64,000 bases of DNA. Origin: a virus. The position numbers and the translations under genes were made by a program. Positions 3,005 through 59,073 of the stretch are shown piece by piece. The stretch is from the IMG/VR virus record IMGVR_UViG_2786546122_000004, positions 3,022-67,021 of that record; one strand, 5' to 3'. A model generated the notes under the pieces. That model saw only the letters and a list, made by a program, of their open reading frames with translations, had not been told where the DNA came from and made no database searches. How positions within the stretch are numbered: position 1 is the first letter of the stretch; each line of letters opens with the position of its first letter.

Positions 3005-3127
3005 TTAATAGCCCCCAGCAAAAACGAGTGAAATTATCAATAACCAAAAGACTGCTCCAGAAACAGCAAGAAAGCTTTTTGCAATACTCATAAACTCTTG
3101 AAAATCATTCTTCAACGACTCTTTCAC
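3005..3127 (-). CDS. small hydrophobic membrane peptide (40 aa)
   Basis: GTG with RBS AAGGTG; C-terminal TM FLAVSGAVFWLLIISLVFAGG. Confidence 0.5.
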   Translation of the reverse strand: MKESLKNDFQEFMSIAKSFLAVSGAVFWLLIISLVFAGGY

Positions 3128-18642: not shown

Positions 18643-19962
18643 TTATTCAGATTCTTTATTAACGTATGTATGTATTAATTCCTTGAATATTGACTCAAGC
18701 ACAGTTACAGTAATTGAATTACCGGCTTGCTTATATAATTGTGAGTTACTTATTCCCGCAGCAAAAGCTTTTTCAAAATCTTCGTCATCAAAAGCCTGTA
18801 GCCTAAAGCACTCTAACGGTGTTAATCTTCTAATTCTGTATTTTGGATATTCTCCAACCGCTACCCCGTGTCTGTCAATTGTGTTTACTGTAAATGCTGG
18901 TTCACCGTCATCTTTAAATCTTCTTCCATTTTGTCGCTTCTCCCCCCTTTCTGGGGTTAATACTGGCCTTACCTCAACAACTGCATTTTGTTTTTGGTTC
19001 CTATTCAATCCTCTCCAGTCAGAAGCAGAAAGCGTATGAGATACAGCTAGTTCTCGTCCAAGCCCGCTTTTTCTGGAGTACTCAACTGCAATTTTCAGTC
19101 CCTCTCCTTTATTAGTGGTAATTGTGGGGCTTAATCCAGATGAATTATAAACATTTCCATTCATTCCATTACCAGAGGGATTAATATTACCTACTTGCTC
19201 AACAGTAAGATTTTCATTAAGTCGACTTGTAGACAGCTCTTTGATCAAACTGTTTGTTTTATCTTCATTCAAGTAGTACTTTTCATCAACGTATTCTTCT
19301 AATAAATCTTTTAGCCTCTTCGTAGCAGCCGATTGAGCTGTCCATCTAAAATTAAAGCTTTTAATATCTAATTCTGCCAATCTCTGTTTCCCTTTTTGAA
19401 GTATATCCTTTCTTTTAAAATCCAAAGACCATTCTTCATTTTTAATTAAATCTTCTCTAATTCCAATTATGTAAAGTCGCTCCCTATTTTGTGGAACATT
19501 AAAGAATTTTGAATTAAGCAGCTCTAGGTCAATTCTGTACCCAACTTCACTGAAAGCTTCAGCCATAACATTTAATGTATTTCCTTTATCATGGTTGATC
19601 AACCCTTTAACATTTTCAAAAACAAAAAACTTTGGTTGCTTTTCCTTAAGAGTCTCAACGTATTGAAAAAACAATGTCCCTCTTGTATCTTCAAATCCCT
19701 TTCGATGGCCGGCTACACTAAAGCTTTGACAAGGAGATCCTCCAACTAAAAGATCAAATTCAGGTAGTTTTTTCTTATCAATCTTGCTTACATCTCCAAA
19801 ATTTAATTGCTCATCAACGTTGTGAATTGCACAAAAAGATTTGACGGCATATTTATCAATCTCACTAAAACCAACCAGCTCATAACCAACCCCAATGTTT
19901 CTTAGTGCAGCTTCAAATGCACCGATCCCACTAAAAAGACTCATTACACGTAGTTTACCCAA
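18643..19962 (-). CDS. mtbP: multispecific DNA (cytosine-5) methyltransferase, M.SPR type
   Basis: FSGIG, GSPCQ, ENV, QNRER, YKQAGNS; 439 aa; three TRD-like segments (PTIT, HTLS, FTVN). Confidence 0.95.
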   Translation of the reverse strand: MGKLRVMSLFSGIGAFEAALRNIGVGYELVGFSEIDKYAVKSFCAIHNVDEQLNFGDVSKIDKKKLPEFDLLVGGSPCQSFSVAGHRKGFEDTRGTLFFQYVETLKEKQPKFFVFENVKGLINHDKGNTLNVMAEAFSEVGYRIDLELLNSKFFNVPQNRERLYIIGIREDLIKNEEWSLDFKRKDILQKGKQRLAELDIKSFNFRWTAQSAATKRLKDLLEEYVDEKYYLNEDKTNSLIKELSTSRLNENLTVEQVGNINPSGNGMNGNVYNSSGLSPTITTNKGEGLKIAVEYSRKSGLGRELAVSHTLSASDWRGLNRNQKQNAVVEVRPVLTPERGEKRQNGRRFKDDGEPAFTVNTIDRHGVAVGEYPKYRIRRLTPLECFRLQAFDDEDFEKAFAAGISNSQLYKQAGNSITVTVLESIFKELIHTYVNKESE

Positions 19963-35267: not shown

Positions 35268-35328
35268 TCAGTTAACCCCTTTTTGTTTTGATAACTGGGC
35301 TAATCTTAGATTAACCCAGCTTGACTCT

Positions 35329-35495
35329 GATTAAAACTTTACAAGTCTATCATCTTTAGCCCCTTCTGCTATTAAACTATATGCAGCCAGAAGATGCTCT
35401 TTGATTTTCTCCGAAATCATCAAAACCAACTTTCACACCACTTGAAGTCATTACTTTTTTAACCTAATCTATTACCTCTTCTCTCTTGTTGATTC
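35329..35495 (-). pseudogene. degraded small-ORF remnant at the yorB position
   Basis: REEVID*VKKVMTSSGVKVGFDDFGE then frame change to IKEHLLAAYSLIAEGAKDDRLVKF*; no start codon. Confidence 0.3.
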
Positions 35496-35506
35496 ACAAG
35501 CAGCAT

Positions 35507-36565
35507 TTAATCCAATAAAGAAAAGTCAGGCTTCAAAATCAAATCCATTATTGGTATTTTCCTCTCTTCACAAAACGAATTAATATAAGTGAATAATTCA
35601 GGAAGACGTAATTGTTCATATTCTGTCATATCATCTTCATCTAAAATTTTGTAATTGGTAAGCAACCTCCATTCTTTTATAAAGTTTTCATCTAAACCCT
35701 TCATATTCAGACGGTCTGCAACCGCATAAGGATCAGACACTATGTTACTTCCAGACCCATATCTATATGGATTTTTTTTATAGACTTCAATAATTATATA
35801 TATGAATCTACGTGTATTTTCCTGTAGGTAATTTAAAATTTCATAAAGACCTTTAAGTTCATTGTACATTTCTGTCTTTTCAACTTTATCTGTAAACTCA
35901 AACGTTAATAAAAACGTCTCCGCCGTAAAAGGTATCAGATTTTTAGTTTCGATTGGATATAAATCTTGTTTGAATGTTTTAATCTGTTCATTTATATTAT
36001 TAGTTATATATTCCCTTACATTAGAAACCGTTGAACTATCAGTGTCGGATGAGTCAATCAAACATAACAGATCCATAAGATCCCAAATTTGTATTTGATA
36101 TTGATTCCCATCCTCTAACACTCGGTCACATTTGTAAACATTAAACTGACTTTTTACGAATTGACAACGGTCTTTTTCATGCGGTTTGAAATGCTTTTCT
36201 CCTACTACGAAATGAATTAAATTGTTATGTTTTTTATATTGTTCGTTTTTTTCAAATTTATCTAATGTTTTCCACAATTTATCTTTTGAACCATCAACAG
36301 TTATCTGGATTGAAGATTGATCTTCTTCATCTGCCAAATCAATTCCAGGATAGTTTTTTTCGATATGTTCTAACCTTTTATATTCTTTATCCCATAGAAC
36401 ATTAAATAAACCAGCAAAAAATTGCTCACAAGCTTTGTTAATATTGTACAATCCAAGTTTGGCAGAACTAAACCTTATATAATATTGCAACAAAGATAAA
36501 CCTTTCATAATATCTTCAATTTCTTCTAGTCTTCTTATCATTTCAATTTCTCCCGTCTTATCCAA
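35507..36565 (-). CDS. SMEK-domain protein, candidate anti-phage effector
   Basis: N-terminal GLYNINKACEQFFAGLFN...NYPGIDLAD...SIQIT..K..KTLDKF; ATG 36541 is an alternative start. Confidence 0.75.
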   Translation of the reverse strand: MDKTGEIEMIRRLEEIEDIMKGLSLLQYYIRFSSAKLGLYNINKACEQFFAGLFNVLWDKEYKRLEHIEKNYPGIDLADEEDQSSIQITVDGSKDKLWKTLDKFEKNEQYKKHNNLIHFVVGEKHFKPHEKDRCQFVKSQFNVYKCDRVLEDGNQYQIQIWDLMDLLCLIDSSDTDSSTVSNVREYITNNINEQIKTFKQDLYPIETKNLIPFTAETFLLTFEFTDKVEKTEMYNELKGLYEILNYLQENTRRFIYIIIEVYKKNPYRYGSGSNIVSDPYAVADRLNMKGLDENFIKEWRLLTNYKILDEDDMTEYEQLRLPELFTYINSFCEERKIPIMDLILKPDFSLLD

Positions 36566-36730
36566 GATACTTTAACATTCCTTTCATACGATTTAATGCC
36601 CCATAAGTTTCGTTAAACTAAAGGAAATAAATTATGTTGATGGCTTTGCGTCTCATCTAATAAATATTCAAAATCGTTTTAAACAGCTGTATTTCTTGCT
36701 TCTTCTGAGGTCATTTAAACACTCTCCCTA

Positions 36731-36758
36731 TCTGGTTAAAATATCGTTTTTAACCAGA
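36731..36758. repeat. 28-bp gene-junction palindrome (perfect copy)
   Basis: TCTGGTTAAAA-TATCGT-TTTTAACCAGA. Confidence 0.8.
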
Positions 36759-36762
36759 TTAT

Positions 36763-37800
36763 TTAAAATATGTACTCGCCCATTTCTTCAAGCAATGTAT
36801 TTTTATCATTGATTTTATTTATATTTAACATTAATTTCATATGTTCTTTATTATCGATTTCCCATCCTCTTTTAACAAATCGTAATAACCGCTTTGCAGA
36901 GCCAATTGGATTTGTTCCTTGTAGATTGTATATTAATTTATTTTGCTTAATTGCCTTTAGAGATTCTTCCTTAATAAAGAATTTATCTTCACTTGGATTG
37001 TAGAATGACATCGTATGAATAAAGTCAAACTTATTTATCGTTTCAAGTGGTGATTCTCCATTATTAATTATCAATTGAATCTGAGAAGGGAAAGTGATCG
37101 CTCTTTGACTGAATACAATTGGCAGCATTTCATCATTGTCTTCAAAGCTTTTCACAAATTCTCTAGTCAGCCCAAGCCTTAGCTTTCCATCGTTTTCACT
37201 TTCCAAAAGGCATAATTTATCATTTTTGTTGCTGACATGACTATTATGTAAACTGCTATAGTAATCTATTATTTCTTTTAGAGCTTCTTTGGAATCAATA
37301 AAAATATCGTAGTCTTTGGGACATTCTCCTTTAATCAAAGAAGCAATGCTTCCTCCTGAAATATACCCGTGTTTCTTTAATAATTCTTTAATACGGTTTT
37401 CTTTAATGCTCGAAGTAAAGGATTCAAGTTTAGCTTTCAGTTTAGTCTTAATCTTATTCAATTCTTCAATACTTTCATTTATATCCTTAGGCTCTGTTTC
37501 CTCAAGTGAATATCCGTAATCAGGATGCACCCAAGCTATAAAATATATATTATTATCTGATTCAAAGCTGGTCGATTTCATAAATAGATAATTAAAATAC
37601 TCATATGCAGTGTTACATTCAAACGGGAAGTTTCCAATATATTTTGTTTTCAATTCACGTTTAAAACAATTGAGATTCACTCTTCTTGAAGTATCGTAAA
37701 GCTCTACAGATTGATCGTAAGGATCATAAACAATTGTGTAATTCTCTCTTCGATTAATATCCTCAACTTCAAATGCTTGCCTAGTGTACTTGTCTTTCAA
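36763..37800 (-). CDS. phage nucleotidyltransferase (Pol-beta fold, YoqZ-like position) with N-terminal extension
   Basis: ISGGSIASL...KDYDIF, KFDF, RLLRFVKRGW. Confidence 0.7.
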   Translation of the reverse strand: MKDKYTRQAFEVEDINRRENYTIVYDPYDQSVELYDTSRRVNLNCFKRELKTKYIGNFPFECNTAYEYFNYLFMKSTSFESDNNIYFIAWVHPDYGYSLEETEPKDINESIEELNKIKTKLKAKLESFTSSIKENRIKELLKKHGYISGGSIASLIKGECPKDYDIFIDSKEALKEIIDYYSSLHNSHVSNKNDKLCLLESENDGKLRLGLTREFVKSFEDNDEMLPIVFSQRAITFPSQIQLIINNGESPLETINKFDFIHTMSFYNPSEDKFFIKEESLKAIKQNKLIYNLQGTNPIGSAKRLLRFVKRGWEIDNKEHMKLMLNINKINDKNTLLEEMGEYIF

Positions 37801-50219: not shown

Positions 50220-51296
50220 TTATCGCTCATTTACATGCTTTATAAACTTTTTTAATGTAACAAGATCAGCGTTTTCAAAAAAACTAATAAAATCCTCTTG
50301 GGTTGCTTCATATAGTGGATTTAAATCGATTTTTTCATCCATTGTTACACCAGCAGAGTTCGCTATGTTAATCTTTCTGCTCATATATCTCTCTGTTGTT
50401 AATGTGTTTTTATGATTTCCTTGTTCTTTTGCTGCAAGTAAATCGTGACCAGAATTCTCATAGACATAGTCAATTCCTACACCCTTAAATGAGTGTAAGA
50501 CTAATTCTCTTTCAGGAGGTATTCCTAACCTTTTTTTCGACCTTTTTAAGGAGTGTCGTAAAGATTGTTCCGAAAGCCCCTGAAAAACCAATTCAGTTTC
50601 GCTGTCATCCTCTTCCTTCAGCTGCAACAATTCCTCATAAAATACCTGGTTAATGCCTGTAGACACAACCTGAGATCCTTTATCAATAACTGTTACTATA
50701 TAATGGCCTGTACTTTCATCAAGCTGTATGTCTTTCCATCTTACTCGCAAAATCGCACTTACACGAAAAGAAGTTCTGATGGCGAATTTAACAAACAGCT
50801 TTTTCATTAAAGGTTTCTGTCTTTCATTTATATACATATCCTGAGCGATTCTTTCGGCTTCTGTCTGGGTTGTTTTATCCCAGTTTTTAGTTACTGTTTT
50901 AAGCCTTTCGACAGTATTAAACACCGACAAGTCAATATAGTCCTTATAATCATGCTCCAAATATGTATAGAGCATCTTCAGGGAGGTCATTTTTCTGTTA
51001 ATACTATTATTAACTAATCCCTTTTCCTGAAGATACTTCACATAGTTGCTTAATTCGCTTTTACTTACAACTAAATCATCGGGAACTAAACTTTTGACAT
51101 CTTTACCTTTAATCACACTAAAGAACTGCTTAATATCCCCTTCATAATTCTTTCTGGTGTTCGACACCCTTCTAGTTGATGAAGGCATCATATAGTTAGA
51201 ATTCCCTGAGCTACTTCTTATATCTTTATTGATTAAAAAGCCCTCGATATCATCGTAAACCGCATAATTTTTTAATTGTTTAACTTTATTTTGCAT
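50220..51296 (-). CDS. yopP: SroD tyrosine-recombinase-family protein
   Basis: 358 aa; SFRVSA, DKG, LHSFK, GNH, ERY. Confidence 0.88.
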   Translation of the reverse strand: MQNKVKQLKNYAVYDDIEGFLINKDIRSSSGNSNYMMPSSTRRVSNTRKNYEGDIKQFFSVIKGKDVKSLVPDDLVVSKSELSNYVKYLQEKGLVNNSINRKMTSLKMLYTYLEHDYKDYIDLSVFNTVERLKTVTKNWDKTTQTEAERIAQDMYINERQKPLMKKLFVKFAIRTSFRVSAILRVRWKDIQLDESTGHYIVTVIDKGSQVVSTGINQVFYEELLQLKEEDDSETELVFQGLSEQSLRHSLKRSKKRLGIPPERELVLHSFKGVGIDYVYENSGHDLLAAKEQGNHKNTLTTERYMSRKINIANSAGVTMDEKIDLNPLYEATQEDFISFFENADLVTLKKFIKHVNER

Positions 51297-51498
51297 TATC
51301 TTCTCCTCCTTTCTCATCCAATAACTCATCAATAGAGACATTCAATACCAGAGCGATAAGCTTTATGGTTGTAACATCTGATTCATCTGGCATTTCAATG
51401 ATTTTGTTTAATTTCTGAATATCAATCATTGTCTCCCTCGACAATTCCTCTATTGTGATGCCACGTTTGACCAATAGCTGTTTTATTCGCTCTGACAT
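51286..51498 (-). CDS. yopO: SroC XRE HTH protein
   Basis: 70 aa HTH. Confidence 0.85.
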   Translation of the reverse strand: MSERIKQLLVKRGITIEELSRETMIDIQKLNKIIEMPDESDVTTIKLIALVLNVSIDELLDEKGGEDNAK

Positions 51499-57375: not shown

Positions 57376-59073
57376 TTAATAATTACTTTCAAATAAAAGC
57401 TTAATTCTATGATCCAACATACGATCTTGGTAATTATCCGCTTCATTTTTAACATAGTGTACAAAGTTATCAAAATATCCCTCAATGCCCCAATGCTTAT
57501 AGATGTTAAACATGAGTAATTTACATAAAATACACCAATCCCAGTGTTCTTGAGTTATTTGACCTTTAGGTAAAGGGAAAAAGAAATGGTTATCCTGTAT
57601 CTTTTGTTTTAAGTTTTCTTTTACCTCTTCATGATTTATAGAAGTAATTGAATCCATGAGATATTTTAAGTAGTTATTAGAACCGAACATTTTACTTGTA
57701 AAACAATCACTTATTTTATCCGCTAATTTATTATAATATTGGTAAATTATTTCATGATTAATCAATTTGATTATTTCTTTAACCTCTTTGCTTTGTAAGG
57801 TATACTGTGATAATGAAATATCATTCTCAAAAACGGTTTTTTCTATGTCTACATGTTTTGCAATATTAGGCTTAATCTTTCTAAGTAATTCTTCTTTGTC
57901 TAGATTAATATCAATGGACAAAATCTCTGACCATTCTACCCCATTAGTAATTGCTTGAATTATGTTTCCAATTGTTTCTTCTCCACTTAGTTCCTCAAAA
58001 AATTTTTTTGATTCCACAATCACATTTATAATCTCTTCTTCTGATGAAAGAAAATTTATGGGTTGGTAATTAAAATTATTTATAAAGTCTATCTCATTTA
58101 GGATGTTTGCCTTGTTAAACTCCCCACTCTCATACAAACGTTTAATGTGGAATAATACACTTTTACTCATGGAATTATCCAATGAGTTTTTCATTATATA
58201 GGCGCACATATAATCTACAATTGCACTTTCGCTTTCTGAATACCTTCTCATTTTCTCATCCATTAGGATCATTTTACCGTTATGTTCAACATTAAATACA
58301 ATTGTGGCGAAACACATTCGATAAACATCTTCTTTAGTAAACTTGTCACTAAACACGTTCTGCCCCAATGTATTTATTACTTCTAAAATTAATAGTTTTA
58401 TTTTCTGGAATGTTCTTAAATTTTTAAAAGAGAAAAATTCAGTAAGACCGCTAAGTGTTTCCCATACTTCTTCCCCTAGAATTTCAACAGGAGCATTGTC
58501 AGAGTATTTTTCAATAAAGTATGTACGATCAATTGCTTTTTCTTTGTAATCAAAGAAAATGCTTTCATTATCAGCATCTAAATGTTTTGTTGCTGCAATT
58601 AAAACAGTTTTAATTCCTTTAATTTTTGACAAGCTGTCCGATAAACCGAATATTTCTTTCAATCCAAGTTCTTCGTGTTTTCTTTCTAAATCATCAAATA
58701 TAATGATATACGTATCCTTTTGACTTAATTCTTTCTCCATAGCTTTATAAATATCGCCAAGTAAAGGAATGGTTAAAGAAAAACCGTAAATAGAAAAGTC
58801 TATTTTATTTAATTTCCCTGCCATATCTGTATACCTTTTTTTAAATTTGCCACCTATATCATCATTTGCTATTAGCTTAAAATAGATATCTTGGATTATG
58901 GTTTTAATATCTTTTTGTCCAAATAGGGATATGTAACAGCTATTAGGATAATCTTTTGTAAAATCTTCGACATACTTTGTTTTACCTATTCCCCACTCAC
59001 CCTCTATTAGCACTCTGTTATAAGAAGATTGACCAAGCTTCTCTAATACATCTATTATTTCATTTGCTTTCAT
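57376..59073 (-). CDS. KAP-family P-loop NTPase, candidate phage-exclusion protein
   Basis: Walker A IEGEWGIGKT, Walker B IIIFDDLER, NLRT..K. Confidence 0.85.
   Translation of the reverse strand: MKANEIIDVLEKLGQSSYNRVLIEGEWGIGKTKYVEDFTKDYPNSCYISLFGQKDIKTIIQDIYFKLIANDDIGGKFKKRYTDMAGKLNKIDFSIYGFSLTIPLLGDIYKAMEKELSQKDTYIIIFDDLERKHEELGLKEIFGLSDSLSKIKGIKTVLIAATKHLDADNESIFFDYKEKAIDRTYFIEKYSDNAPVEILGEEVWETLSGLTEFFSFKNLRTFQKIKLLILEVINTLGQNVFSDKFTKEDVYRMCFATIVFNVEHNGKMILMDEKMRRYSESESAIVDYMCAYIMKNSLDNSMSKSVLFHIKRLYESGEFNKANILNEIDFINNFNYQPINFLSSEEEIINVIVESKKFFEELSGEETIGNIIQAITNGVEWSEILSIDINLDKEELLRKIKPNIAKHVDIEKTVFENDISLSQYTLQSKEVKEIIKLINHEIIYQYYNKLADKISDCFTSKMFGSNNYLKYLMDSITSINHEEVKENLKQKIQDNHFFFPLPKGQITQEHWDWCILCKLLMFNIYKHWGIEGYFDNFVHYVKNEADNYQDRMLDHRIKLLFESNY

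Follow-up and report, generated by a model that had tools for sequence, protein, structure and literature searches.

SMEK nucleases have so far been studied only within multi-gene systems, and the locus described here raises the question of what such a nuclease does when a phage carries it as a single gene. The gene lies in a window of 64,000 nt (IMGVR_UViG_2786546122_000004, positions 3,022–67,021) within a virus record of 123.7 kb, and the source is an SPbeta-like Bacillus phage, as yorC–yorF and yoqX–yoqW are 85–99% identical to SPbeta and its relatives. Judged from its sequence, the SMEK protein is a plausible anti-phage effector and a candidate one-protein defence, and we consider it slightly more likely than not that it acts as a single-protein defence nuclease that is switched on through its C-terminal domain. 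A one-gene SMEK in an SPbeta-like phage of B. subtilis can easily be tested with standard strains and phages, and our literature search, which had incomplete coverage, found nothing on stand-alone SMEK proteins, their C-terminal domain or experiments on members. Elsewhere in the window, all on the minus strand, are genes for a C5 DNA methylase (18643–19962), a YopP-like protein (50220–51341) that matches Phage_integrase above the cut-off and a KAP-family NTPase (57376–59073).

The gene and its slot

The SMEK and winged-helix gene is located on the minus strand at 35507–36541 and encodes 344 aa from an ATG at 36541. This is likely the start in use, lying 7 nt behind the ribosome-binding site GGGAGA (36549–36554, minus strand), and the RefSeq annotation of the copy in B. 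subtilis SH1 uses the same one. The alternative reading from a TTG at 36565 (35507–36565, minus strand) gives 352 aa and 1059 nt, and the residue numbers used here (E47, D76 and others) follow this longer reading. The GC content of the gene is 29%, compared to 34–36% in the core genes. Three further loci (L012–L014) encode the same SMEK protein, and direct comparison of the copies in L012 and L035 with the window gene showed zero differences over 1059 nt. L035 (NZ_CP064819.1) is a 118-kb B. subtilis 'plasmid' with SPbeta-like phage genes around the match and is probably an excised prophage.

Similarity to the phage backbone ends at 35458 and returns at 36691, inside the interval between yoqX and yorC. 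This interval varies between phages: in SPbeta it is occupied by yoqY-yoqZ-yorA-yorB, in SPbetaL6 gad2 is present in addition, and gad1 is found there in SPbetaL2 and L4. In the literature it figures as a dedicated anti-Gabija locus (10.1101/2023.05.01.538930). The preliminary description had proposed that the SMEK gene replaces yorA and yorB. A replacement did take place but its extent is different: compared to SPbeta the block also takes out yoqY and yoqZ, and of yorB it removes only the 5′ part and the promoter with its SOS (LexA) box (PMC8270828). Without the LexA-controlled yorB promoter, yorC–yorD would depend on upstream transcription. Among the genes lost at 35329–36760, yoqZ is annotated as a poly-gamma-glutamate hydrolase. 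At the downstream break (~35459) the decayed ORF that had been seen earlier turned out to be a yorB-like 3′ remnant (35329–35458, minus strand) with a frameshift and a 14-bp deletion, and at the upstream break (~36690) the first eight codons of the yoqY-slot gene of SPbetaL4 and L6 are left (36691–36714, minus strand). The 13-bp stem-loop 5′ of yorC (35293–35321, minus strand) belongs to the backbone, as SPbeta has it too. The SMEK gene is a real, intact, one-gene occupant of a gene-swapping slot of the phage.

A second SPbeta-like contig (L027) carries a 65%-identical SMEK allele between yoqX and yorC, with two intact palindrome sites as bounds, the upstream one having the same centre as that of the window. 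Because this allele sits in the same slot between two sites, SMEK is a recurring slot occupant. The earlier idea of acquisition as a cassette holds in part, for a mobile single gene that recurs in this slot but not for the palindrome as a gene-specific boundary. The nuclease halves of the two phage alleles are 81–84% identical and their C-terminal domains 41%, with dS values of about 0.5 and about 2.4 (near saturation), respectively, while dN/dS is 0.16–0.22 between the alleles and near 0.2 in both halves, indicating purifying selection. From this pattern the C-terminal domain appears to be a specificity module that was exchanged by recombination between the phage alleles.

Upstream DNA and expression

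The gap upstream of the gene (36542–36762) measures about 220 bp, close to the 200 bp first given, but of this only the 149 bp at 36542–36690 (minus strand) are foreign DNA acquired with the SMEK gene, and 36691–36752 is phage backbone with 98% identity to SPbetaL6. About 90 bp of the foreign part are conserved in the L027 allele. A native promoter, as had been assumed, could not be recognised there, since the best sigma-A-like match reached 8/12 and was no better than in shuffled sequences. With the gene oriented like the early lytic region and no promoter better than expected by chance, a lysogen may not express it. It could accordingly be an intact but poorly expressed passenger in an early-region slot that is transcribed by lytic read-through only and brings the phage little or no benefit. 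Such a passenger would fit the missing promoter signal, the gene stub and the pseudogene at its flanks and its rarity, with no full-length relative among 50,697 phage records and no related loci found in IMG/VR or JGI metagenomes, and the identity of the compared copies would then point to recent spread. We nevertheless think this explanation unlikely, as two diverged alleles occupy the same slot in different SPbeta-like phages with a dN/dS of about 0.2, and the non-coding upstream DNA is conserved between them.

The palindrome and the Gad2-like neighbour

The upstream boundary of the slot is a palindrome at 36730–36759 with perfect 12-bp arms around a 6-nt centre (core 36737–36752, minus-strand centre ACGATA; folding z −4.3), which is one of four inverted repeats with arms of at least 11 bp in the window. 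It belongs to a family of TAAAA-N6-TTTTA sites, 35 of which are present in the 124-kb genome (in the window at 1221–62570) compared to 1–5 expected, with the spacing N6 alone being enriched. Most of these sites are located directly 5′ of ribosome-binding sites on the minus strand. Their centre and right arm track the downstream slot and their left arm tracks the upstream gene, and the centre of the palindrome at this slot is kept in SPbeta, L4, L6 and L8, whichever gene comes next. The perfect junction palindrome reported before therefore exists and bounds the slot, but it is no SMEK-specific junction, as the family is phage-wide and the sequence break comes some 40 bp further on, inside the next gene. 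That it is an insertion scar or terminator specific to SMEK was likewise rejected in view of the 35 phage-wide sites and of its imperfect form beside identical SMEK genes in other phages. A possible decayed second core, weak and picked out by eye, is located at 36669–36681 (minus strand), its spacing from the conserved upstream block roughly matching that of the intact site in L027.

Outside the SMEK unit, and flanked by palindrome sites with cores at 36737 and 37820, lies a gene for a Gad2-like nucleotidyltransferase of 345 aa (36763–37800, minus strand). The protein shows 24% identity to Gad2 of SPbetaL6 (E = 3e-8) with the motif kept and, on the basis of this similarity, is a candidate anti-defence protein. 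The gene is absent from the other phages with the same SMEK gene: in three other assemblies and in the SH1 element the SMEK protein is encoded directly behind yoqX, and a single hybrid palindrome site is kept, which is what a clean gain or loss of the Gad2-like gene would leave. Because the palindrome is imperfect in these carriers, its perfect symmetry in the window comes from the end of the Gad2-like neighbour.

Position and orientation of the SMEK gene fit the anti-Gabija locus, where Gad1 and Gad2 counter Gabija, and with a Gad2-like gene adjoining, the SMEK protein might work in the lytic phase together with the early genes, by excluding co-infecting elements, by degrading host DNA or as a decoy for a host system. 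We regard such a role as quite improbable, as the relatives are mostly found on plasmids and islands and not in phages, HNH proteins with the same C-terminal domain are widespread on plasmids, and the active site is intact, unlike that of a decoy.

The SMEK nuclease domain

The N-terminal domain (residues ~9–170; 36056–36541, minus strand) was assigned to SMEK, described as an Mrr-like PD-(D/E)XK domain (10.1101/2023.06.08.544223), in agreement with the preliminary description. Profile searches matched both PF21941 of Pfam (E = 6.9e-28, residues 19–143, 97.7 bits against a curated cut-off of 27) and NF033859 of NCBIfam (E = 2.4e-23, 81.8 bits against a curated cut-off of 30). The Mrr domain of the Kordia Mrr-APAZ protein in PDB entry 26bh matches as well (E = 3e-22), and the active-site residues align to the same E..ID...Q-x-T...K motif. 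The putative catalytic residues E47, D76, Q87, T89 and K96 are intact and, like N55, which is also present in the window protein, 99–100% conserved in an alignment of 86 relatives. The nuclease-like pattern recognised before is real, but its spacing is I75-D76-x(9)-I86-Q87-I-T89, with nine residues after ID and thus one more than the eight given. Foldseek returned only weak Mrr/REase-type matches from BFVD and nothing at E ≤ 0.001 from the PDB, either with the whole model or with the C-terminal domain alone. Family membership and intact motif lead us to infer that the domain is a metal-dependent Mrr-like DNase.

The C-terminal domain

Residues ~205–352 (35510–35953, minus strand) form an acidic (pI about 4.7) helical and winged-helix domain according to AlphaFold and fold matches, and it is a candidate sensor or oligomerisation module. 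Modelled alone, it reached a pLDDT of 89.6 and a pTM of 0.85 and resembled winged helices such as those of Cdc6/ORC with Z values of 7–8, a level that in a predicted model would indicate a common fold and implies no function. Conserved are R252, L302, C332 and a terminal DFS-L-LD motif. No family in Pfam, NCBIfam or PADLOC matched the domain, its profile had no match among PDB sequences, and an Atlas feature search with the domain alone gave no usable one. With the same profile 155 representatives were found among 1.8 billion proteins, of which the weakest (E 1e-4 to 1e-3) may in part be false.

Of 123 proteins scanned, 71 combine the domain with SMEK and about 24 with an HNH domain of the CBASS-effector type; single proteins carry a TIR, deaminase or alpha/beta hydrolase domain, and further groups with other restriction-like domains were assigned, like all effector groups beyond SMEK, HNH, TIR and deaminase, by motif inspection. 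Independently of the profile, an Atlas structure search ties the domain to HNH proteins (TM 0.73 over 144 residues). The C-terminal domain is modular. Its tree needs 20 label changes for five effector groups and suggests repeated effector swaps, the number of which is not fixed by this quick tree with its mostly open forks. A domain that some 150 protein clusters share, in combination with effectors of several kinds, is a candidate new infection sensor, and it is this shared domain that is the part of real interest. We discarded the idea that it is the leftover of a STAND NTPase, which rested on generic winged-helix matches, as Pfam found no NTPase family in the 123 proteins. The XopAX type III effector model of NCBIfam matches eight of them (best E = 2.5e-10), so that a relationship between the XopAX family and these immune-type proteins is possible.

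Matches covering most of the HNH form were found on 64 plasmid records, which represent several phyla. The HNH gene is solitary in all five loci opened, with Abi-family or DUF4297 genes adjoining in two, and this plasmid-borne protein is an equally good defence candidate. Its genes (L030:5001-5822, L032:5001-5882, L033:4992-5831, L034:4998-5783) are mostly annotated as 'hypothetical', and L042 has tandem copies.

The combination of a PD-(D/E)XK nuclease with a C-terminal winged helix is also the layout of DpnI, and several types of nuclease are known with a fused winged-helix reader (PMC11037411). The protein could thus be a modification-dependent (type IV) endonuclease, in which the winged helix recognises a modified base of incoming phage DNA, SMEK cuts that DNA and the cell survives. 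The Mrr-like nature of SMEK would agree with this, as would the finding that no methylase is linked in any neighbourhood examined. On the other hand the C-terminal domain is acidic and also found on TIR, hydrolase and deaminase proteins, which involve no DNA cutting, and the C5 methylase of the phage itself would make a 5mC target self-damaging, so that we consider a type IV enzyme improbable.

Relatives and their neighbourhoods

The 25 close relatives show 38–62% identity, and the named ones come from Bacillales. Such relatives are uncommon: a search of 401 genomes of the order gave two full matches, and one of these was the starting genome itself. The loci of the close relatives include an island next to smpB that also has GmrSD- and Dnd-type genes, a prophage cargo position and other islands, as well as B. 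cereus-group plasmids where the gene is near integrases and CBASS-type, Schlafen and Panacea genes. The surroundings of several others are mobile without being rich in defence genes. No conserved partner gene was present in the loci of relatives opened. The proposed architecture of a stand-alone SMEK protein with a separate C-terminal domain is borne out by these solitary relatives and by the occurrence of the domain with other immune effector domains. A stand-alone SMEK gene for 307 aa with a different C-terminal domain is found on IncX1 plasmids (L036:3962-4885).

We also considered an orphan effector of a multi-gene system, either a Lamassu LmuA or the partner of a short Argonaute, with the other components encoded elsewhere. 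SMEK, HNH and lipase domains are indeed LmuA effectors (PMC12663957), and the sole PADLOC match of the protein is a model of an Argonaute-associated REase. This match is, however, limited to profile positions 2–169 of 463, there is no match to ABC-3C CTD or APAZ families, and the short C-terminal domains of LmuA are helical bundles. Neither a LmuB-like ATPase nor an Argonaute is encoded beside the SMEK relatives examined, the phage has no ORF with a LmuB-like Walker A motif, and no short pAgo gene is present in the window. An orphan effector is therefore highly improbable.

Proposed mode of action

The reading as a defence nuclease with its own switch is based on the near-invariant active site in 86 relatives, the purifying selection and the homology to Kordia Mrr-APAZ, for which weak collateral nuclease activity of the complex has been reported (PMC12205087). 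It is further based on a C-terminal domain that is acidic, joined to many effectors and linked to HNH proteins by structure search, on solitary relatives beside GmrSD/Dnd, CBASS-type, Schlafen/Panacea, Abi or DUF4297 genes, beside integrases or in prophage cargo, and on the different divergence of the two halves, which fits an exchanged specificity module. Against it speak the description of the slot as an anti-Gabija locus and thus as a place for lytic-phase counter-defence cargo (10.1101/2023.05.01.538930), the lack of a promoter above chance together with the early-lytic co-orientation, winged-helix matches that name a fold only, and those neighbourhoods that are mobile but not rich in defence genes.

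In this model an accessory slot of an SPbeta-like phage would have taken up an immune nuclease gene from the pool of defence genes on Bacillales plasmids and islands. As no methylase or antitoxin is linked, the nuclease would have to be held off by other means, and the swappable C-terminal domain is likely the switch. SMEK would most likely be inactive until the winged-helix domain senses an infection signal, presumably a phage protein rather than DNA: protein sensing or assembly is favoured over the reading of DNA modifications in view of the acidity of the domain and its occurrence with effectors other than nucleases. Sensing would change the oligomeric state of the protein, and the activated nuclease would cleave DNA without specificity and halt the infected cell, with the lysogen population being protected from competing phages. 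The C-terminal domains of LmuA tetramerise and thereby build the cleavage pocket (PMC12663957), and by analogy, DNA degradation and abortive infection would follow activation here. What we infer comprises the trigger, the oligomerisation, the abortive outcome and the expression of the gene in lysogens. More tentatively, and with somewhat less than even confidence, we propose that the C-terminal domain serves as a so far unrecognised immune sensor in widespread one-protein defences with interchangeable effectors, and that SPbeta-like phages keep a SMEK cassette in the anti-Gabija slot and swap its sensor half. If a defence role of the SMEK gene is confirmed, the 'anti-Gabija locus' would carry both defence and counter-defence cargo.

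Comparison with known systems

PADLOC 2.0 including its PDC candidates gave no full-length HMM match and matched N-terminal domains only, with the single PDC-S54 match falling on the other half of a fusion protein. SPbeta-like phages are known to carry defence cargo, as nonA of SPbeta acts by abortive infection against SP10 (PMC8270828); NonA, however, is a small membrane protein and the Gad proteins are counter-defence, whereas the SMEK gene of the window sits in the Gad1/Gad2 slot. A stand-alone SMEK protein of 360 aa from P2-like phages (e.g. YP_009883071.1) has the same two-domain layout and the same terminal motif. Its C-terminal domain is distant from that of the window protein (E = 3e-5 with a broad profile; hhalign E = 8e-4 over 153 columns, probability 24%), it comes from phages of a Gram-negative host where it lies antisense to tail genes, and it is uncharacterised like the window gene. 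DpnI and HhiV4I (PMC11037411) likewise combine a nuclease with a winged helix and have no cognate methylase, but the C-terminal domain of the window protein is acidic and also present on non-nuclease effectors, and DpnI was absent from its sequence matches and from the top 50 fold matches.

The SMEK protein belongs neither to the Lamassu nor to the short-Argonaute systems. The LmuA-SMEK protein of the three-component Lamassu (LmuA-SMEK/ABC; PMC12663957) is also an effector with a C-terminal domain, and its suite of swappable effectors (SMEK, HNH, lipase, Mrr-like) is similar, but the window gene has no LmuB or LmuC neighbour and its product a predicted winged helix instead of a bundle of 5–6 helices. 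No Lamassu model matched in the PADLOC scans, and the ABC-3C CTD families of Pfam were found neither in 24 C-terminal domains nor in 123 full proteins. The SMEK(Mrr)-APAZ protein of Kordia jejudonensis (PDB 26bh; PMC12205087, PMC10810196) has a homologous nuclease domain and probably the same chemistry, whereas the window protein has no APAZ domain and no Argonaute gene, with a winged helix in the place of APAZ. Hence the protein most plausibly works like an effector of Argonaute- or Lamassu-type immunity and, as far as its sequence tells, is a candidate new variant among the nuclease-plus-sensor defence proteins.
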